20,000 nucleotides of DNA from an uncultured virus (IMG/VR IMGVR_UViG_3300031335_000002) (taxonomy: Duplodnaviria > Heunggongvirae > Uroviricota > Caudoviricetes). Under the pieces are notes generated by a model. It ran no database searches and was not told where the DNA came from. It saw only the letters and a program-made list of their open reading frames with translations. This document shows, piece by piece, positions 2,785-19,919 of the stretch (its first letter is position 1; the number at the start of each line of letters is the position of its first letter). The stretch lies in the IMG/VR virus record IMGVR_UViG_3300031335_000002, one strand, 5' to 3'. A program made the translations under genes and the position numbers.

Positions 2785-2943
2785 TTACTCCTTTAGCATA
2801 GCCTGCGTCCAACTCTCAAGGGAAAATTTATTATCTCCCAAGAAAGACACCCCACCAATAGGTTTATAGCCTTTTTGCATAAGACTATTAACTTGGCTCT
2901 CCAATATATACCTATCAGAACACTTAACTACTTTGTATTTCAT
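2785..2943 (-). CDS. Small protein (52 aa), DUF1737-like
   Basis: Start re-assigned to MKYKVV behind an AAGGA RBS; the pattern VNSLMQKGYKPIGG...QAML resembles the DUF1737 family. Confidence 0.6.
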   Translation of the reverse strand: MKYKVVKCSDRYILESQVNSLMQKGYKPIGGVSFLGDNKFSLESWTQAMLKE

Positions 2944-3415
2944 TTTTCTTATTCCTTTCAAGGATCTTACGTTTGATTTTAGCAGCATACTTTTTTGTAG
3001 CCGGGGGAACGTTTTCGTGAGGAACAAATTTAATTGCTGATATAACACGATTATATGAAGCGTACTCCCCCGAAGGAAGGGTAGAGGTTATAGAGTCAGA
3101 GAGCATTTGCAGGTAAACCTCTCCGTAGTAAAGACCACCTTTTGTTTTGTAGAGATCAACTATCTCAAACTCAAATGCGTTTTTTCCCAATTTGTTCATA
3201 TCATCTTTAAGATTTTTAGACGAACCCGCATAGGTTCTCCAAGAATGTTCTTTTCCGTATCTAGGTGATTTCTTTAATCCGTTATACCTAAACACTTTCT
3301 TGCCAATGTAAAATTTACCGTCACTTTTTCTTGTGATACAATAGACAAACCCAAACCACTCCGAAGTTCTAAATTTTCTTCGGAATGACCAGTGGCCTAG
3401 GTTGTCCTTAGACAA
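2924..3415 (-). CDS. GIY-YIG family endonuclease (start uncertain; TTG at 3415 proposed, ORF is open to 3553)
   Basis: FGFVYCITRKSDGKFYIGKK matches the GIY-(x10)-YIG motif, followed by WRTYAGSS, FEFEIV and a late YN. Confidence 0.8.
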   Translation of the reverse strand: MSKDNLGHWSFRRKFRTSEWFGFVYCITRKSDGKFYIGKKVFRYNGLKKSPRYGKEHSWRTYAGSSKNLKDDMNKLGKNAFEFEIVDLYKTKGGLYYGEVYLQMLSDSITSTLPSGEYASYNRVISAIKFVPHENVPPATKKYAAKIKRKILERNKKNEIQSS

Positions 3416-4292
3416 TAACGGCGTGGGAATTGGTGATTTCTTCGTATTCTTCTGGGTCAAATGTCCAAATGTCTCCTTTTGTCCTCCAGATATGAAGGAG
3501 ACTACCATTGAACAAAAGCTTCTTGAAACCCTCGTTACCGTATTTAAGACCATACTTAGAAACTACCACCTCTTTGTGTTCTTGTGGTGTTGTCAAGCCC
3601 GACAAAATCTTACCTGCCTTGATTGGTCCTATTCCTTCTATACCCGGAATATTGTCAATGGAGTCGCCGGTCAACATCTGTTTCCAGAAAAATATATCGG
3701 CTTGTTCCTCATTGACGTGCCAACGCCTCTTAGCGTTAACCTCTGTTTTTGGGTCTAAATGATATCCGGGTATCATGTCTAGGTCTTTGTCAACCGTGAC
3801 TACAACATAGTTATCTTCCCCTAGCTTGGTAGCCCAGACACCAATAGCGTCATCTGCTTCGTAACCTTGACAGTAATGGGCATCAAATACATCTACTGCC
3901 CAGAACCTTAGCTCATCAATATAAGGCGCTCTTTTCTTATTAGATGTTGCCCTTGCTTTTTGAAGCTTGTACTCTGGATGTATTTTCTTTCGAAAGTTAT
4001 CCTGAGAGTTGCCAACTGCCATTGAGTACACAGCCTCTTCTTCTGGTATGTAGTGGCTCTCGAATATGTGCTCTACAAAATGCTCAAAACGGTCTTGAGC
4101 GTGTTCAATTGAAGGCTGATAGGTTTGTTTTGCTGCTTCTATCTCCTTAAGACTTGCACCTCTCCACTCCATCTCTTCTAAGTCAGCCTTAGATGCTGGT
4201 TTTTGCCAACAAGCCATGTGAACAAGAATATCACCATCGATTAAGAGTCTCCTGTTCTTTGGCTTATACTGGATTACTTCCTGCATTATCAT
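3408..4292 (-). CDS. 5'-3' exonuclease / RNase H-like flap nuclease (T7 gp6-like); true start probably ATG at 4286
   Basis: LLIDGDIL, NFRK...YK..R, EADDAIG, DKDLDMIPG, GDSIDNIPGIEGIGPIKA (H3TH motif). Confidence 0.92.
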   Translation of the reverse strand: MIMQEVIQYKPKNRRLLIDGDILVHMACWQKPASKADLEEMEWRGASLKEIEAAKQTYQPSIEHAQDRFEHFVEHIFESHYIPEEEAVYSMAVGNSQDNFRKKIHPEYKLQKARATSNKKRAPYIDELRFWAVDVFDAHYCQGYEADDAIGVWATKLGEDNYVVVTVDKDLDMIPGYHLDPKTEVNAKRRWHVNEEQADIFFWKQMLTGDSIDNIPGIEGIGPIKAGKILSGLTTPQEHKEVVVSKYGLKYGNEGFKKLLFNGSLLHIWRTKGDIWTFDPEEYEEITNSHAVIV

Positions 4293-7745: not shown

Positions 7746-8047
7746 TTAAGACTGTTCCTTCTCACTCTGGAGAAGGTCTGTTTTCTTAGCGTACACTGGG
7801 ATTGCCTCTTTTTTGTGGTGGTTATAAAAGTTTGCGCGTCTCTCTGTGTCATACATCTTTCCTCTAAGTCCTATCAACGCTGAAGTTTGTTCTTTCTCTG
7901 TTCCGTTTCGGGCAACTACATCTCTCCACCTCTTGACACTGAATACGTGGGGGACCCACCAACCAACACAGACCTCTTCATCTTTAACGTCTGCTAATTG
8001 CTTTTCAAACGGCGCTTTTTTTTTTTAGTTTCAAAGATATCATCCAT
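7746..8047 (-). pseudogene. Roughly 100-aa hypothetical gene interrupted at an A11 tract (programmed frameshift, phase variation or sequencing error)
   Basis: A long open frame (APFEKQLADVKDEEVCVGWWVPHVFSVKRW...EKEQS*) lacks a start at its 5' end; two ATGs coupled to the upstream stop come into frame with A12 (8047) or A10 (8043). Confidence 0.6.
7981..7999 (-). promoter_or_regulatory. Candidate phage RNA polymerase promoter AATTAGCAGACGTTAAAGA
   Basis: 17/19 identity to the intergenic motif at 9438-9456; resembles the SP6 promoter ATTTAGGTGACACTATAGA. Confidence 0.55.
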
Positions 8048-8555
8048 TATAAGCTTCTTCTTCAATTTCATCAAGTGCCTTAGAGAGATCATAACGCAGG
8101 GCTTCTGCGCTAATGTATCCGTAGAGACGTGCTACTTTGTCTGCAGCAAAGTCTTGAGACCAGTGGTTACCCTCTGCCATGATTGCCGCTCGTTCTTCAA
8201 ACTGGTCACGACACATCATAATTTGTTCTTTTGTTTTAAGCTCTACTAAAGCCATAGGATTGTCCTTCCATTCGTTGCCATAAGTTTTCCCAAAGAAGAA
8301 AGCCCATTTATAAGGATCGTCTAATACTTCACAAGAGCACCATTCCCAGTTAGAGATGTCGATATTATTGTAACGAGCATTCGATTCTATTAAAGACATA
8401 TGCGCTCGCATATCAACCATAGTATAACACCCATCTCTAATAAGCATGATGTAACCCTTTTGGGCACAGGGTCCACTCTCAATAAAGTGTAGGCTGTAAT
8501 TTTCATCTACTAGGCTTAGATTACCGCTGTAGAACTCCATGAATCTTTCAGACAT
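8040..8555 (-). CDS. Hypothetical protein
   Basis: 171-aa ORF with GAAAGGG RBS. Confidence 0.75.
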   Translation of the reverse strand: MSERFMEFYSGNLSLVDENYSLHFIESGPCAQKGYIMLIRDGCYTMVDMRAHMSLIESNARYNNIDISNWEWCSCEVLDDPYKWAFFFGKTYGNEWKDNPMALVELKTKEQIMMCRDQFEERAAIMAEGNHWSQDFAADKVARLYGYISAEALRYDLSKALDEIEEEAYNG

Positions 8556-9752: not shown

Positions 9753-10154
9753 TCAAACGGGTCGATGAAGACACTGCCTAACTGCAACTGTAGGCCACAA
9801 TCCAAACGGAATTGCGACAAGTTTCTCTCTTGAGTCGGACTCTGGATCATAGGTGACCATCCCAACGATAGCTCCTTCAATATCAGCCCTCCCTATTACT
9901 TTGAACAGACAAACAGCATCTTTAGGTAAAGTACCTTGGAATGCACCCGGTGCTTTTATCCAGAACATCATACCCTTAAAAACTATGGTAGGCTCTACAC
10001 AGGGATCTAGGCTGTAAATTGCTATTATTTCAGACTCCAGTTCTTCAATGCGTTCAAGCAAAGCAATATGAATATAATCCGCACAACCAAGAGACCTTAA
10101 CTTCTCAATTCGTTCTCTTGATATATTTACTTTTACTTTATTATGCAAAGGCAT
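9753..10154 (-). CDS. Hypothetical protein (start uncertain)
   Basis: 133-aa ORF overlapping the RNA polymerase stop. Confidence 0.6.
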   Translation of the reverse strand: MPLHNKVKVNISRERIEKLRSLGCADYIHIALLERIEELESEIIAIYSLDPCVEPTIVFKGMMFWIKAPGAFQGTLPKDAVCLFKVIGRADIEGAIVGMVTYDPESDSREKLVAIPFGLWPTVAVRQCLHRPV

Positions 10155-11535
10155 AGTCTGATTCCTCTATTTTGCTAAGATCTAGTTTGCCTCTTTCTGG
10201 CATTAGATCTAAAGAGTTAAGTTCTTCTAAGATCTCTCTAAGAGGATCTATTTCATGTAGCCGTCTAAACGTTTTGCGTACCCTGTAGAAGAGATCTTCC
10301 ATATGGGCGGCATGACAACCGAAAGAGTCATGTACCACAACAACTGAAAATGAGCAATCATGTACAGTATGGGCCAAGTGTGCAGCATCCAACGAATGTA
10401 CGATGTTTGGTGCAGCCCCTGTTTTTTGCTTGCTTTCGTTAAGAGTACTCTCTTCCCAAACTTGAATTTGGACCCACAGAGTTTTGGGTCCATGTTGTAG
10501 GCGTACGCGTACAGCCTTTGCTTTTCGATACTCTTGTACCACTGGAAACCCAGTAGTTGGTGTATGCCATGTGAGCGGCTTATTTTCTTCATTTGCTCTC
10601 TCCGCAAGGGTTTCAAACAGCCTGAGCATTCTAGCTGGGCCTTTTAGTTCATCATAACAGGTACGATATACTAAGTCTCCTAACATTATACCCCAGAGAT
10701 AGTCCTTGTCTCTCAGATAATCGCTAATACCTCTGGTGTCCTCAATTACTTGTTGACCCATACCGTAGGGGGTACCGCCATAACCGAGTGTCATAGTATT
10801 TCTCTTGACGCTTGATCTCCTCTGTTTCTTAGTTAATTTGAGCCAATAGACAGGGAATAGCTTTTCTCTAAGATCCCTATTACTCTGTTTCCATTTCATA
10901 AGATTCTTATAGGCAATTTCCTTACGATCTGACCCAAGAGGAGCTTCAGAGTACTTCTTTTGCAGCTCTATACCCTTACTTTGCACAGCACTAAATCTAT
11001 TTACTACTTTCTTAGGTAGTTTGCTACGCATGTCTTCTAACCTAGACCATACCTTATCAGCAATGAACATGTATACATCGCCGGGGGTAGCTTGAGGTAC
11101 AAGATTGACAAGAGGCGCAACCTCTTCATCACGGGACATAGCAGCAAGGTGTTGAACACCATTGTTACTACCGTCTATGAAGACCGGTAGGCAAGACGGG
11201 AAATCTTCTGATTCTTCACCTCGCTTTTCCCACGCAGTCAAGGCTTCAATTTCAAAGCAAGAGGCTAAGAAAGAGAAAGGTTTATCAGCTTTCATCCATC
11301 CACGATGAGAAAGCGGATCGCGCGCGTAATCTTTAATATAATGCAAGTTATCTTCTACCCATTCAACTCTTTCTTTTAGCGGTATCTTGTCTTCTCCCCA
11401 TACATTTGCAGCATAGGTGTATAACCACTTTTGGCCGTTAGGACCTAGCGGGACTGGTTCGTCCAGCATTAGGATACCGCGAGCGTTATCTGAAGACTGT
11501 TCATGTAAGAATGCCGTGTTGGGGTAAATCCTACC
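10141..11535 (-). CDS. T7-type single-subunit RNA polymerase, exon 2 (464 aa)
   Basis: Begins GRIYP; motif A DGSNNGVQH, motif B RSSVKRNTMTLGYGG, APNIVHSLDAAHL, motif C VHDSFG, C-terminal YAFA (T7: FAFA). Confidence 0.95.
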   Translation of the reverse strand, partial: GRIYPNTAFLHEQSSDNARGILMLDEPVPLGPNGQKWLYTYAANVWGEDKIPLKERVEWVEDNLHYIKDYARDPLSHRGWMKADKPFSFLASCFEIEALTAWEKRGEESEDFPSCLPVFIDGSNNGVQHLAAMSRDEEVAPLVNLVPQATPGDVYMFIADKVWSRLEDMRSKLPKKVVNRFSAVQSKGIELQKKYSEAPLGSDRKEIAYKNLMKWKQSNRDLREKLFPVYWLKLTKKQRRSSVKRNTMTLGYGGTPYGMGQQVIEDTRGISDYLRDKDYLWGIMLGDLVYRTCYDELKGPARMLRLFETLAERANEENKPLTWHTPTTGFPVVQEYRKAKAVRVRLQHGPKTLWVQIQVWEESTLNESKQKTGAAPNIVHSLDAAHLAHTVHDCSFSVVVVHDSFGCHAAHMEDLFYRVRKTFRRLHEIDPLREILEELNSLDLMPERGKLDLSKIEESDYAFA

Positions 11536-12256
11536 CATATTGTTCGCAGAAGATCGTTAGTCTTCTACCGTAACATGCGACCAAGTTTTTCCAGCCCTTA
11601 TTTGTTTTATGCACCACTCCGTGACATTGAGCTTCTTTGCAAGAGCTTTCCTCTTCATATTAGGCCTCTTCTTTACTTCTATCACTTCTAGCTCTGTAAG
11701 TTTCCTCATTGGGTTTTTCCTTCCATTCATCCTGTAAGAATGAAGTTGATTGTGAGAAGGAGTACATCTTTCTAGATTACAAAGGCTGTTGTTGAGTGGG
11801 TTTCCGTCTATGTGGTTAACCTGTGTCAAGCTAGGCACCTTTAAGATAAAACTATCCGCAACAAGCTGATGAACTGTTTTTGTGCATCTCTTTGATTTAT
11901 AACATAGAACTAAAGTCAGGTAACCTTTAGAGTTTTTAGTAGGCTTGAGATATTTACCTTTTTTTAACGCCATAGTTCCACTGAAGGGAACAAGAGTATC
12001 TAAAAGACGTACTTCTCCTTTATTAGATACTTGGTATACGGTTTCAAAGCCTTTAATATCTTTCCATATTCGCATGTTCTGCTCCTTATTACTAAGAAGA
12101 TCGGACTATATCATACCTATACTAGGCCTCTGCGCTTCGAGCCACTTGGCTCTACATAATAGTCTCTACACCTTCTAATTAAAAATTAGCTTGGCTCGGT
12201 ATTGTCACATTGGATGTTTACCGAATTCACAGAGTTTTACTTCCGCCATAGGATTA
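11536..12256 (-). mobile_element. Group I self-splicing intron (IA2-like, 721 nt) in the RNA polymerase gene
   Basis: 5' splice site after U with P1 CUUCCGU/GCGGAAG (U-G pair); P3 CUCUG/CAGAG; P7 elements GUAGAGACUA and GAUAUAGUCC; terminal G; P10 AAUCCUA/UAGGAUU; removal restores the in-frame sequence DFR|GRIY. Confidence 0.93.
11557..12075 (-). CDS. Intron-encoded NUMOD4-HNH homing endonuclease (I-HmuI-like architecture)
   Basis: IWKDIKGFETVYQVSNKGEV (NUMOD4), VHQLVA, VNHIDGNPLNNSLCNLE (HNH), C-terminal HTH-like LAKKLNVT...IRAGKTW. Confidence 0.92.
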   Translation of the reverse strand: MRIWKDIKGFETVYQVSNKGEVRLLDTLVPFSGTMALKKGKYLKPTKNSKGYLTLVLCYKSKRCTKTVHQLVADSFILKVPSLTQVNHIDGNPLNNSLCNLERCTPSHNQLHSYRMNGRKNPMRKLTELEVIEVKKRPNMKRKALAKKLNVTEWCIKQIRAGKTWSHVTVED

Positions 12257-13057
12257 ACGGAAGTCGAAGTTATATAAGTGGTAGAAAGTTTTATCAAGGT
12301 GGAGATTTGCAAGCTTTCGGACGGCTTCCGCTTCTATTAGCATAGACCGTTTTTTCTTGTTGTCGACCTCTCTATAATATTTGAACGGAGACTCACTATA
12401 GTCTTCGGATTTTTCCATGAAGTGTTCATAGACTGCAAAGACATCCTTGTTGATCCTCCATCCAGTGCTGCTTAGTTTATTTAGAACATAGAAAAGCACT
12501 TCCATTTCTTCGCTGGGTCTTTTAAATGGGTCAAGTTGCATGGCAGACCCTCTTTTAACAATTGGTGTGCCAGTAGTTGAATGATATGGATATCCCTTGG
12601 CCCAAGGTGCTGGGACGATATTGACAGGAAACATGTCACAATTGTCCATATCAATTGTATCAATCAGAGTCTTGAGACGTTTCCAATCTTCTGCTACAAT
12701 AACATAGGCTCTGTGCTTAGAGACCTTTGTATTTCGATTTGTCTTTTCTTTTGTGTAAGAAATCAAGCCAATGTCTATGAAACTTATTACAATAAACCAC
12801 CCAGCATGGATTTCCATAATAGAGTCTTGTGGTAGCTTGTTCTTTTGTCTTAGCCTACGACCAATAGAAGCAGATAGCTCTACCAGCGTTCCTCTTCGCT
12901 CAATTGCTCTCAGAACATGGGGGTAACTGAAGGCGATAAGGTTTTCCGCAGATAGTTTCTCTTCCGTGAGCCAGTAGGCACCATTTCTGGTGTCAAGATT
13001 TTCAAGACGGTAACTTAGGTCTTGTTCGAGGGCTTCTAGAGTTTCTGATGCTTCCAC
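12257..13057 (-). CDS. T7-type single-subunit RNA polymerase, exon 1 (267 aa, GTG start)
   Basis: AGGAGG RBS; P.PW, LNKLSSTGWRINKDV and terminal YHLYNFDFR, equivalent to T7 FPYNMDWR. Confidence 0.9.
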
Positions 13058-13744: not shown

Positions 13745-13927
13745 TTATAACCTTGGACCAAAGCCGTCTTTGTTAGATAGTATTAATAAGAACACTAGCA
13801 CTAGGCCTGTAACAACACTAGCTAGTCCAAATGTGGGGTAATCAATCCACCAAGGTGCATCGAAGTACCATACTATGGTGTAGACGGCCCAAGATAATAT
13901 GACGGAAATCCAGTAGAATATAATCAT
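13745..13927 (-). CDS. Small membrane protein (two hydrophobic segments)
   Basis: ATGA overlap with the HD gene stop, GAGG RBS, hydrophobic helices. Confidence 0.65.
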   Translation of the reverse strand: MIIFYWISVILSWAVYTIVWYFDAPWWIDYPTFGLASVVTGLVLVFLLILSNKDGFGPRL

Positions 13928-14538
13928 ACTCGATACACCTCCGATTGCATTTCCATATCACTTGTCTTTGGGTTTGATCCGAGGTCATAGTTTGATCCGT
14001 AGAATCGGAAAGCCCGTAAGATCAAAAGACCCACGTCTTGACGAACACCAAGTTTAGATGCCTGACTAAGGATGCTAGCAATCAGAGTTTGCTCCTGATC
14101 CATGCGTTCTGGTTTTATAGAAGCTTGAAAAAGAAGGCTATCAATTTGATCCAACATTCTGACAATATCTTTCTGGCGGTCTGTAACTGCTGCGGGGTAA
14201 GTAAAGCTCCTTGAACAATGGAATTCAAACCTCTTCATTTCATTAGATTCTAGATTGTCAAGAGCTTTCTTTAGTTCAGGAGATTTGTTTTTAGCATGAT
14301 GAGGTGAGTCACCTGCTGCAAACTCTGGTGCATCATGCATAATGATATACAAAACTGTTTGTAGGTCAACTTCTTTTTTAAAAAGAGACAAAAGCAGCTT
14401 CACCATACGAGCAGAATGTGCGTCTGTGAGATCTGCCGAGTTTCTGAGGCTATGCTCATGGTGTGAGTGATAACGATTTACGAAACCAGATCGCCACAAC
14501 GTGAACGTTTCTACTGCGTTTTCAATTTCTTTAGACAC
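13924..14538 (-). CDS. HD-domain phosphohydrolase (YfbR/DatZ-like deoxynucleotidase family)
   Basis: R-YH, AHS, HDAPEFAAGDSP..K..PELK and downstream LDQID follow the H...HD...E...GD...D arrangement of YfbR-like enzymes. Confidence 0.8.
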   Translation of the reverse strand: MSKEIENAVETFTLWRSGFVNRYHSHHEHSLRNSADLTDAHSARMVKLLLSLFKKEVDLQTVLYIIMHDAPEFAAGDSPHHAKNKSPELKKALDNLESNEMKRFEFHCSRSFTYPAAVTDRQKDIVRMLDQIDSLLFQASIKPERMDQEQTLIASILSQASKLGVRQDVGLLILRAFRFYGSNYDLGSNPKTSDMEMQSEVYRV

Positions 14539-17314: not shown

Positions 17315-17659
17315 TCAATGTTCATCATCATCACCCGAAAACCAAACAGTGTTGCTAGGGCCTTCAACCGTATAGCTTTTTTGGCATAGCCCCTCACAAA
17401 GAAGTTTTGCAAGTTCGTTGGTTCGCTTAAGTATGTCAGCCTCACTGATCGGAAAACGTGGGTACTGGATGCGACTCACACAAAACCCAGCTTCGTCGCC
17501 ATCGGTGTATATATAGTCCAAAGAGGTGACCGCATAACAGTCACCGATCTTGTCGCAGTATTCTCGGACAATTATCTTTGCCAGCGTCACGTCACCCGCC
17601 ATCCAAATTTTATGGGTGCAGGATTTGTTTGTTAGTGATGTCATTGTCTCAGTTTTCAT
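17315..17659 (-). CDS. Hypothetical phage protein
   Basis: GGAGG RBS, ATGA overlap; the YIYT.G.E.GF.V..I.YPRFP pattern is recalled from other phage hypothetical proteins and has not been checked. Confidence 0.75.
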   Translation of the reverse strand: MKTETMTSLTNKSCTHKIWMAGDVTLAKIIVREYCDKIGDCYAVTSLDYIYTDGDEAGFCVSRIQYPRFPISEADILKRTNELAKLLCEGLCQKSYTVEGPSNTVWFSGDDDEH

Positions 17660-18486
17660 GTTGGCCTCCCAGCCACAAGATTGGGGAGATGAACAGCTTG
17701 CGCTTCGATAAAGTTTACAAAGCTTATCCGCTCCGCTCCCAGTGATGTACCGCCGCGAGTCTTGTTCCAGTGAGTCCGGGCATCGTCAGATGTGAACCAT
17801 CGGCAACCGGCTTTAATCCATACTTGGTCATCCCTGACCACGCTGAAAAATTCATAGCCGTCGACGCTCGGCCCAACACGCAAAATACCATGAGCCTTAC
17901 TTAGGTCGGCACCACTCAGATTAGCTTCACGCAAATTGGCACCACTCAGATTAGCTTCACACAGATCGGCATAACGCAGATCGACATAGCTCAGATAGGC
18001 ATAACGCAGATCGGCATAGTGCAGATTGGCATAGCACAGATTAGCCTCAGTCAGATCGGCCTCATTCAGATTGGCATAGCTCAGATTGGCACCATGCAGA
18101 TTGACATAGCGCAGATTGGCACCACTTAGGAGAGCACCATGCAGATCGGCATAGCGCAGATTGGCCTCACTCAGATTGGCATAGCGCAGATTGGTCTCAC
18201 GCAGATTGGCATAGCTCAGATCGGCATAGCGCAGATTGGCACCACTTAGGAGAGCACCATGCAGATCGGCATAGCACAGATCGGCCACAGTCAAATCGGC
18301 CTCACTCAGATCGGCATACCGCAGATTGGCACCACTTAGGAGAGCACCACTCAGATCGACGCCGTTTTCTATAGCCCATCTTACGGCCAGACCAATTTTT
18401 GCTGGGTCCGAAACGTCGTCGGTGCAGCCAAAGTTAGCTGTGAACTGGATTTCTCCGGTGTGGCGGTTTTGGATATCGTATTTCAT
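17656..18486 (-). CDS. Pentapeptide repeat protein with C-terminal domain (intact paralog)
   Basis: Long A(D/N)Lxx repeat array; C-terminal IKAGCRWFT...ARTHW domain; AGGAGG RBS. Confidence 0.93.
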   Translation of the reverse strand: MKYDIQNRHTGEIQFTANFGCTDDVSDPAKIGLAVRWAIENGVDLSGALLSGANLRYADLSEADLTVADLCYADLHGALLSGANLRYADLSYANLRETNLRYANLSEANLRYADLHGALLSGANLRYVNLHGANLSYANLNEADLTEANLCYANLHYADLRYAYLSYVDLRYADLCEANLSGANLREANLSGADLSKAHGILRVGPSVDGYEFFSVVRDDQVWIKAGCRWFTSDDARTHWNKTRGGTSLGAERISFVNFIEAQAVHLPNLVAGRPT

Positions 18487-18623: not shown

Positions 18624-19277
18624 TCAAGAGTGGCCGTCGGCGCTCGGCCCAACACGCAAAATACCATGAGCTTTACTTAGATTGGCCTCACTTGGGAGAG
18701 CACCATGCAGATTGGCCCCACGCAGATTGGCCCCACGCAGATTGGCCCCACGCAGATTGGCCCCAGTCAGATCAGCCTCACTCAGATTGGCATAGCTCAG
18801 ATTGGCACCATGCAGATCGGTCTCACGCAGATTGACAACATGCAGATTGGCACTATGCAGATTGACATAGCGCAGATTGGCATTACTTAGGAGAGCACCA
18901 TGCAGATCGGCATAGCGCAGATCAACATAGCTCAGATCGGCATAGCGCAGATTGGCATGGCGCAGATTGGCATGGCGCAGATTGGCACCATGCAGATCGG
19001 CATAGCGCAGATTGGAAACATGCAGATTGGCCTCACGCAGATTGGCACCACTTAGGAGAGCACCATGCAGATCGGCATAGCGCAGATTGACACCACTCAG
19101 ATTGGCATAGCGCAGATTGGCACCATTTAGGAGAGCACCGCTCAGATCGACGTCGTTTTCTATAGCCCATCTTACGGCCAGACCAATTTTTACTGAGTCC
19201 GAAAAGTCGTTGGCGCAGGCAAAGTCAGCCGTAAACTGGATTTCTCCAGTGTGGCGGTTTTGGATATCGTATTTCAT
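18624..19277 (-). CDS. Pentapeptide repeat protein, C-terminally deleted paralog
   Basis: Same N-terminus MKYDIQNRHTGEIQFTA; A(D/N)Lxx repeats; net 111-nt deletion and GGA>TGA relative to the neighbouring copy. Confidence 0.88.
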   Translation of the reverse strand: MKYDIQNRHTGEIQFTADFACANDFSDSVKIGLAVRWAIENDVDLSGALLNGANLRYANLSGVNLRYADLHGALLSGANLREANLHVSNLRYADLHGANLRHANLRHANLRYADLSYVDLRYADLHGALLSNANLRYVNLHSANLHVVNLRETDLHGANLSYANLSEADLTGANLRGANLRGANLRGANLHGALPSEANLSKAHGILRVGPSADGHS

Positions 19278-19367: not shown

Positions 19368-19559
19368 CTAAACCAGAGCAACAATAAATGCAACAATTGG
19401 AAACTGTGCAATTATTGCAGTAAAAGCATAAGCTATTGGGGCTGCCCATACTGCGTTATAAACGGTTGCTCCAACAACAGTAGCAATTTTCATTGCAGCA
19501 AAGTTGATCCCAAAAGAACCTAAGATCGCAACGAAACCAGAGATAGCAATAGCAAACAT
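19368..19559 (-). CDS. Small hydrophobic membrane protein (63 aa), copy 1
   Basis: Almost entirely hydrophobic; GAAAGGG RBS. Confidence 0.7.
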   Translation of the reverse strand: MFAIAISGFVAILGSFGINFAAMKIATVVGATVYNAVWAAPIAYAFTAIIAQFPIVAFIVALV

Positions 19560-19727: not shown

Positions 19728-19919
19728 CTAAACCAGAGCAACAATAAATGCAACAATTGGAAACTGTGCAATTATTGCAGTAAAAGCATAAGCTATTGGG
19801 GCTGCCCATACTGCGTTATAAACGGTTGCTCCAACAACAGTAGCAATTTTCATTGCAGCAAAGTTGATCCCAAAAGAACCTAAGATCGCAACGAAACCAG
19901 AGATAGCAATAGCAAACAT
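19728..19919 (-). CDS. Small hydrophobic membrane protein (63 aa), copy 2
   Basis: Identical to 19368-19559. Confidence 0.7.
   Translation of the reverse strand: MFAIAISGFVAILGSFGINFAAMKIATVVGATVYNAVWAAPIAYAFTAIIAQFPIVAFIVALV

Follow-up and report, generated by a model that had tools for sequence, protein, structure and literature searches.

A putative group I intron encoding an I-HmuI-type endonuclease within a T7-type single-chain RNA polymerase gene of an uncultured phage

The introns in the DNA polymerase genes of SPO1 and Bastille, which carry the endonucleases I-HmuI and I-BasI (PMC11878797), are close counterparts of the element described here. They share with it what appears to be a subgroup-IA-type ribozyme, a NUMOD4-HNH gene of PHROG 59 placed in a loop and insertion in a conserved polymerase motif. 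In contrast to our element, which is known from its sequence, they reside in DNA polymerase genes, and both splicing and nicking are proven. A second counterpart is gp210 of PhiPA3, where a group I intron with an HNH nicking enzyme adjoins conserved residues in the gene of an RNA polymerase (RNAP) and the nicking enzyme targets an intron-less homologue (Birkholz 2024, PMC11620839). That gene, however, encodes the beta subunit of the multi-subunit virion RNAP of a nucleus-forming jumbo phage, an enzyme unrelated to the single chain considered here. The enzymes described for AR9/PBS1 are multi-subunit as well (PMC12350094). A further group I intron is known from a T7-superfamily replication module, but its host gene encodes a DNA polymerase and not an RNA polymerase. 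In the N4-like phage ZC08, an 'HE insertion' in the gene for RNAP subunit 2 was reported by Amgarten 2017 (PMC5418858), along with the proposal that N4-type split enzymes arise by endonuclease insertion. The closest cultured relatives of the phage studied here are DSS3_VP1 and DSS3_PM1 (Naomviridae, Noahvirus), of which DSS3_VP1 has a reported terL intron (Rihtman 2021, PMC8323127).

The DNA analysed is a stretch of 20,000 nt, termed the window, in which all intron and RNAP features lie on the minus strand (Table 1). Three open reading frames follow one another at 13057-12254 (267 aa), 12075-11557 (172 aa) and 11538-10141 (465 aa), the outer two being halves of an RNAP. Excision of the 721 nt from 12256 to 11536 yields a polymerase of 731 aa reading FDFR|GRIYP, which shares 63.7% identity with the RNAP of DSS3_VP1 across 733 aligned columns. 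The latter gene is uninterrupted, and FDFRGRIYP lies within a single ORF of 732 aa in both DSS3_VP1 and DSS3_PM1. Exon 1 by itself matches residues 1-268 of the DSS3_VP1 enzyme at 63%, and its GTG start is preceded by a Shine-Dalgarno (SD) match with an anti-SD duplex of −10.3 kcal/mol. It ends with TTCCGT, the first intron codon, at 12256, is an in-frame TAA, and exon 2 opens with GGTAGG. Among 20 in-frame joins within ±4 nt, FDFR|GRIYP is obtained at offsets 0,0 and 3,3, and offset 1,1 prints the same peptide; of these, only offset 0,0 has a U before the intron and a G at its end. The intron boundaries proposed in an earlier note on this DNA, 11536 and 12256, are supported to the base: this U/G join is unique among those tried, the DSS3_VP1 junction is identical and a metagenome contig skips just these 721 bases. 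With a single chain, a DxxGR motif and motifs A, B and C at residues 388, 511-520 and 669-671, the predicted spliced product has the makings of a T7-type single-subunit RNAP, again as the note had proposed. T7 RNAP is matched at E 6e-50, and exon 2 aligns from its G424 onward, which places the intron inside the DxxGR (here DxRGR) motif, between T7 R423 and G424. The DxxGR motif acts near the polymerase active site.

Table 1. Features of the window and of introns in related polymerase genes. Assignments are predictions from sequence comparison and RNA pairing.
Feature	Coordinates	Strand	Remarks
RNA polymerase exon 1	12257..13057	-	267 codons, GTG start, ends YNFDFR, PHROG 414
P1	12239..12264	-	final 8 bases of exon 1 with the internal guide, intron nt 11-18; U(-1)·G11 marks 5' splice site
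Group I intron, 721 nt, IA2-like	11536..12256	-	in-frame UAA first, terminal G; RF00028, exon join, contig skip
Internal guide, 5' part	12248..12255	-	intron nt 2-9 pair with exon-2 nt 2-9 (11534-11527), forming P10
Catalytic core P3-P4-P5-P6-P7-P7.2-P8	12103..12234	-	Rfam, pairing, covariation
P9 hairpin	12082..12099	-	7 bp, GNRA loop GUAA
P9.1, 5' arm	12070..12078	-	holds HNH start codon; 9 bp with 11580-11572 in last HNH codons
NUMOD4-HNH homing endonuclease, I-HmuI family	11557..12075	-	172 aa; looped out of P9.1
P9.2 hairpin	11546..11568	-	8 bp, overlaps HNH stop codon; 3' region z −2.26
Terminal G (omega-G)	11536	-	G of ATG 11538-11536, taken as start by ORF callers
RNA polymerase exon 2	10141..11535	-	464 codons, begins GRIYP, Pfam RNA_pol 4e-82
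Motif-B introns	L060:3761-4483; L044:3674-4199; L062:537-1357		two different introns one base apart
RNAP2 introns	ZC08 L072:19714-20675; Moonfish L102:3001-3244; ZQ2 L103:460-703		Rfam
RNAP2 introns	MIF8 L104:2970-3217; pYD6-A L105:2924-3171 and 3497-3753		Rfam

As foreseen in the earlier note, automatic annotation calls two genes here: ORF callers split the gene at ATG 11538 and thereby mimic an N4-type two-subunit enzyme, an annotation that the present analysis corrects. If that annotation were true, the intron would be dead and the gene would be one in pieces, made as two polypeptides, the second from ATG 11538, like N4 RNAPII or Aeh1 nrdA. Both halves are indeed open frames, an in-frame ATG precedes exon 2, and split enzymes of the N4 type exist, for which the insertion origin mentioned above was proposed (PMC5418858). 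The ATG, however, lacks an SD sequence (duplex +0.1 kcal/mol vs −5.0 to −11.4 kcal/mol for seven other starts). Nor is the triplet kept in the two distant loci with an intron at the same site. Where the window intron ends with the triplet ATG, those of L060 and L115 end with TTG and ACG, which leaves the terminal G as the one conserved base. Moreover, the break in the window cuts DxRGR, whereas N4 gp15, which ends at residue 269, retains the motif whole as DKRGR at 236-240, and the hallmarks of an N4-type heterodimer, i.e. two genes with their own starts and a split after DxRGR, are absent. An invariant ribozyme core among close variants argues against a dead intron as well. Two separate polypeptides are thus extremely improbable, and we treat the locus as one gene with an intron. 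In N4, the natural split follows the DxRGR motif by about 29 residues and leaves the motif intact; the window intron therefore bears on the idea of a split by insertion without lending it direct support.

Within the window, RF00028 is the sole Rfam match at E<=1. It scores 53.4 bits (E 3e-11) at 12266-12082, barely above the cut-off of 50. This covariance-model result, combined with P1, P10, a covarying core and the terminal G, bears out the earlier note in placing a group I intron inside the RNAP gene. P1 folds at −12.8 kcal/mol (z −4.58), a stability matched by 0 of 200 shuffles. Of the 731 T positions of the gene region, 2 begin a P1-like run of eight pairs with U·G first, and one of the two is the splice site. 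P10 consists of eight consecutive pairs. Its register also pairs in intron 1 of L060, where both partners of the pairs at exon positions 3 and 6 differ from those of the window. P10 thereby keeps pace with synonymous substitutions in the exon. P7 pairs 12166-12160 with 12108-12103 and contains a bulged A and the invariant G-C of the guanosine site, a pair whose role in that site is established.

The window intron can form P3, P4, P5, P6, P6a, P7, P7.2, P8 and P9, and across relatives covariation is seen in P3, P4, P6, P7, P7.2 and P9. In an alignment of six introns (five distinct rows), scored against a structure taken from the window row and hence biased towards it, 89.9% of 258 cells are paired and two-sided changes occur in 24 of 52 pairs. 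This level of pairing was reached by none of 500 shuffles, and slid controls gave 35-42%. P5 (60%) and P8 (50%) are weakly paired across the alignment; in the window intron, P8 pairs and stands beside the other group I features, namely a U·G P1, the core, P9, P10 and the terminal G. P2 is missing, and an insertion with P7.2 separates P7 from P3'. The IA2 subgroup, a phage type, is distinguished by extra helices P7.1/P7.2 between P7 and P3' together with P9.1/P9.2. Judged by these features, the window intron may be IA2-like: P7.2 pairs in 100% of cells and P9.1/P9.2 are present, with no convincing P7.1. Long-range stems equivalent to P9.1 were found in L115 and, by eye, in L060. The P9 hairpin, whose 3' arm is the SD sequence AAGGAG of the HNH gene (12087-12082), is in its region alone no more stable than shuffles (z −0.29). 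Seven close variants show zero substitutions in intron nt 1-181 and 677-721. It is nearly certain from these comparisons that the element is a group I intron, well preserved and carrying an ORF of the I-HmuI type.

The ORF matches Pfam NUMOD4 (1.5e-13) and HNH_3 (2.2e-7) as well as PHROG 59, in agreement with the intron-encoded HNH protein of the earlier note. Its sole PDB match is 1u3e (E 3.4e-8), which we take to be the I-HmuI structure. H88, N96 and N109 align with H75, N83 and N96 of 1u3e, presumably the I-HmuI active-site residues, and N87 stands in place of D74, as it does in three sister proteins. The order of the two domains, NUMOD4 and then an HNH domain in which active-site residues are present, points to a homing endonuclease of the I-HmuI family. 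More distant HNH relatives lack an RNAP flank in 75 of 76 cases. The nuclease might be weakened, because Arg103, present in 10 of 10 close copies, replaces the Trp found at that position in 61 of 76 relatives, a rough pattern. This residue favours a scenario in which the intron still splices, with its nuclease decayed or dead and the element inherited vertically after homing was lost. That such decay occurs in the group is illustrated by two sister introns, in L044 and L045, where deletion has left a GIY-YIG remnant. On the other hand, the HNH frame, its SD sequence and the residues aligned with H75, N83 and N96 are intact, and the HNH gene has accumulated up to 17 substitutions among the seven close variants with pN < pS in six of the seven, which speaks against a dead nuclease.

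In databases, the insertion site is occupied in a patchy manner. L060, whose RNAP is 45% identical, carries an intron of 763 nt at the same site with a core 79% alike and an HNH protein 51% identical; its Rfam score of 43 bits lies under the cut-off. The same-site intron of L115 (RNAP 38% identical) measures 802 nt, scores 58.2 bits and encodes an HNH protein 46% identical. The nearest relatives of L060 (86-91% over the middle exon) are uninterrupted, and the branch of the window is sister to an uninterrupted RNAP gene in a midpoint-rooted FastTree phylogeny of 50 sequences (at least 600 residues covered, plus L062). Such occupancy in three distant lineages fits homing, repeated loss being the alternative. 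Other introns were found at motif B. One is placed before the Tyr codon in L044, L045 and L062 (74 bits), and its GIY-YIG-like ORF is whole in L062. L060 contains a second intron, with an HNH gene, one base further on (63.7 bits). The splice sites mark the motifs that offer homing nucleases a hold even where the polymerases are no more than 36-45% alike. A tmRNA match in L060 fell far under its cut-off and was dismissed. L074 and L079 were found with the pattern of the exon-1 end plus TAA (seven loci, five of them known), had no RNAP or Rfam match and were put down to chance. Of the 13 loci sharing a 17-mer of the core, five lie on known contigs and the other eight had no RNAP match.

The distribution among close relatives bears on vertical inheritance. 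Exon 2 was found at 67 IMG/VR loci, many of them near-duplicates: 58 are uninterrupted at the site, five are split and four stop short. The split loci are L060 and four that are near-identical to the window (L005-L008). Four metagenome contigs, 97-100% identical to the window, all have the intron. Its presence in 8 of 8 other close IMG/VR and metagenome copies suggests near-fixation and favours vertical inheritance. DNA from salt lakes or lakes is the source of the 24 runs listed, four of which (X17, X22, X23 and X24) were compared. In X23, one contig joins 11535 to 12257 and thereby skips exactly 721 bases, with 30 letters on its short side at a min_likeness of 80, a setting at which joints can stem from other organisms. 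In this run, the intron-less contig has a word depth of 106, while contigs with the intron reach 619-656 and the left flank 963. No intron-less joint was present in the contigs of X17, X22 and X24 (three of the four runs), and contigs cannot show absence. An intron-less target thus appears to coexist with the intron-bearing form in the same habitat, which argues against lost homing; this exact intron-less form would be the natural target. We regard vertical descent with a failing nuclease as unlikely, albeit a reading to be taken seriously. The earlier note's suggestion of homing onto intron-less alleles is upheld as an inference by the X23 form and the patchy occupancy, tempered by the possible weakening signalled by Arg103. 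As an aside, another element with a motif-B-intron-like flank shares about 31 nt of the core (12133-12164) in all four runs.

Splicing chemistry can be assumed from known group I introns. The RNAP gene would be transcribed as one pre-mRNA. Ribosomes translating the unspliced RNA would presumably halt at the UAA observed as the first codon of the intron. The core would fold, an outside guanosine would attack the U·G site of P1 and P10 would align exon 2, so that the exons could be joined at the terminal G to give a single-chain polymerase of 731 aa, an anatomy and product deduced by comparison. As the pairings place the ribosome binding site of the HNH gene in P9 and its start codon in P9.1, translation of HNH and folding of the ribozyme probably compete. 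T4 introns sequester the ribosome binding site likewise, which keeps ribosomes off the core (PMC2988022). During co-infection, the I-HmuI-like protein would nick intron-less alleles near the site, and the intron would then be copied into the nicked allele by recombination. A mobile selfish group I intron that targets the conserved DxRGR motif, and not a regulatory device, is in our judgement a highly probable description of the element.

The opposing possibility is a co-opted switch, where slow or conditional splicing postpones the polymerase of the second stage, or where the nuclease, like PhiPA3 gp210, acts to the detriment of competing relatives. A two-stage transcription cascade is plausible because a close genome, G002, has two polymerase genes, the second being large and DSS3_VP1-like (59% over 1001 aa), and PhiPA3 sets a precedent for interference (PMC11620839). 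Most relatives, however, do without the intron, and the presence of different introns at several motifs is expected of selfish targeting. Scans for promoters and terminators remained at chance level, and the lack of a promoter signal above chance also counts against a switch. A co-opted function is therefore improbable. Of the idea in the earlier note that splicing gates transcription, the sense of a required step holds, and the regulatory sense has not moved beyond plausibility. A wider picture can be drawn, in which T7-superfamily RNAP genes are an overlooked and repeatedly invaded home of introns (DxRGR, two adjacent motif-B sites and motif C). In this salt-lake population, the coexistence of an intron-plus majority with an intron-less minority would then mean that homing is active, or that wild relatives interfere with one another through their nucleases, and splicing would time the second transcription stage of a two-polymerase phage. 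We offer this combination as conjecture that is rather doubtful as a whole.

The element itself is of an ordinary known kind, and its host gene seems to be undescribed. Our search, in which freely accessible papers predominated, returned no published report in which the gene of a single-chain T7-type RNAP harbours a group I intron. The novelty claimed in the earlier note stands to that extent and has to be narrowed, as the nuclease insertion in ZC08 RNAP2 was published in 2017 (PMC5418858). The locus would extend the host genes of phage group I introns to single-chain T7-type RNA polymerases. It adds a base-exact intron-less form, a site common to three distant lineages and unrecognised introns in N4-like phages. 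At least five cultured N4-like phages contain unannotated group I introns in the gene for the RNAPII small subunit (RNAP2). Those of ZQ2, Moonfish and MIF8 (one each) and pYD6-A (two) score 74-94 bits and are unmarked in the records. The ZC08 insertion is a group I intron by Rfam (88.9 bits) and splits motif C; an asd match in ZC08 was dismissed as far under its cut-off. No ribozyme is named for ZC08 RNAP2 in section 10 and the 12 supplements of PMC5418858, and the word 'intron' is absent from the Moonfish paper. These five phages resemble our case in that a T7-superfamily polymerase gene is broken by a nuclease-bearing element, but they differ by a heterodimeric N4-type enzyme, an insertion mostly in motif C (HD) rather than DxRGR and another HNH type.

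In cultured phages, no RNAP-annotated match to the window intron or the two motif-B cores was present among the best 40 of 41, 60 of 242 and 40 of 227 records, many of which are unannotated. Three of these were opened. The match in RCIP0099 is a DNA polymerase intron (L108:2962-3170, unannotated), that in CRP-7 a ribonucleotide reductase intron (L110:2431-2641, unannotated), and phage cp4 had no RNAP near its match. A cultured single-chain RNAP intron was not found in a set of 2733 records less 43 with no place covering 80%. At L099:1415-2446, four group I intron matches (94-105 bits) fall within about 1 kb.

The phage to which the window belongs shares its replication module and gene order with DSS3_VP1 and may belong to the Naomviridae. 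Eleven of 14 tested window ORFs match DSS3_VP1 in order (ten plus the second RNAP half, 34-71%), its DNA polymerase at 60%. G001 (65% complete) and G002 (87%) are near stand-ins for the genome of the window. The second large RNAP gene of G002 is represented in part by L107:3-2990, which is 59% like an ORF of 1493 aa in G005 and ends at the contig edge. A trait of the Naomviridae is dU-substituted DNA, accompanied by a cytosine deaminase. In contrast to DSS3_VP1 and DSS3_PM1, which encode this deaminase, no such enzyme (PF00383) was found in G001 or G002; it is present in G005. The text of PMC12669031 likewise describes a failure to find the deaminase in relatives. Thymidylate synthase was not found in G001, G002 and G005 and does not discriminate. 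An ORF of 171 aa (8040-8555, minus strand) occupies the slot of the DSS3_VP1 deoxycytidylate deaminase and gave no Pfam or PHROG match and no usable Atlas match. A YfbR-like HD protein (13924-14538, minus strand) is 43% like DSS3_VP1_050, a putative dTTPase proposed to remove dTTP (PMC8323127).

Further mobile or repeated sequences occur in the window, all on the minus strand. The primase-helicase gene (66-2783) contains an intein with Hint and LAGLIDADG domains at approximately residues 506-832, whereas DSS3_VP1 has none. Between the exonuclease and primase-helicase genes lies an ORF of the SegE-type GIY-YIG family (2924-3553). As DSS3_VP1 has a gene at this position too, with 56% identity, the ORF is probably conserved and not a recent invader. 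Two paralogous pentapeptide-repeat-like ORFs (17656-18486 and 18624-19277) have near-identical N-termini, and two identical ORFs of 63 aa (19368-19559 and 19728-19919), 360 nt apart, represent an exact duplication or an assembly repeat.
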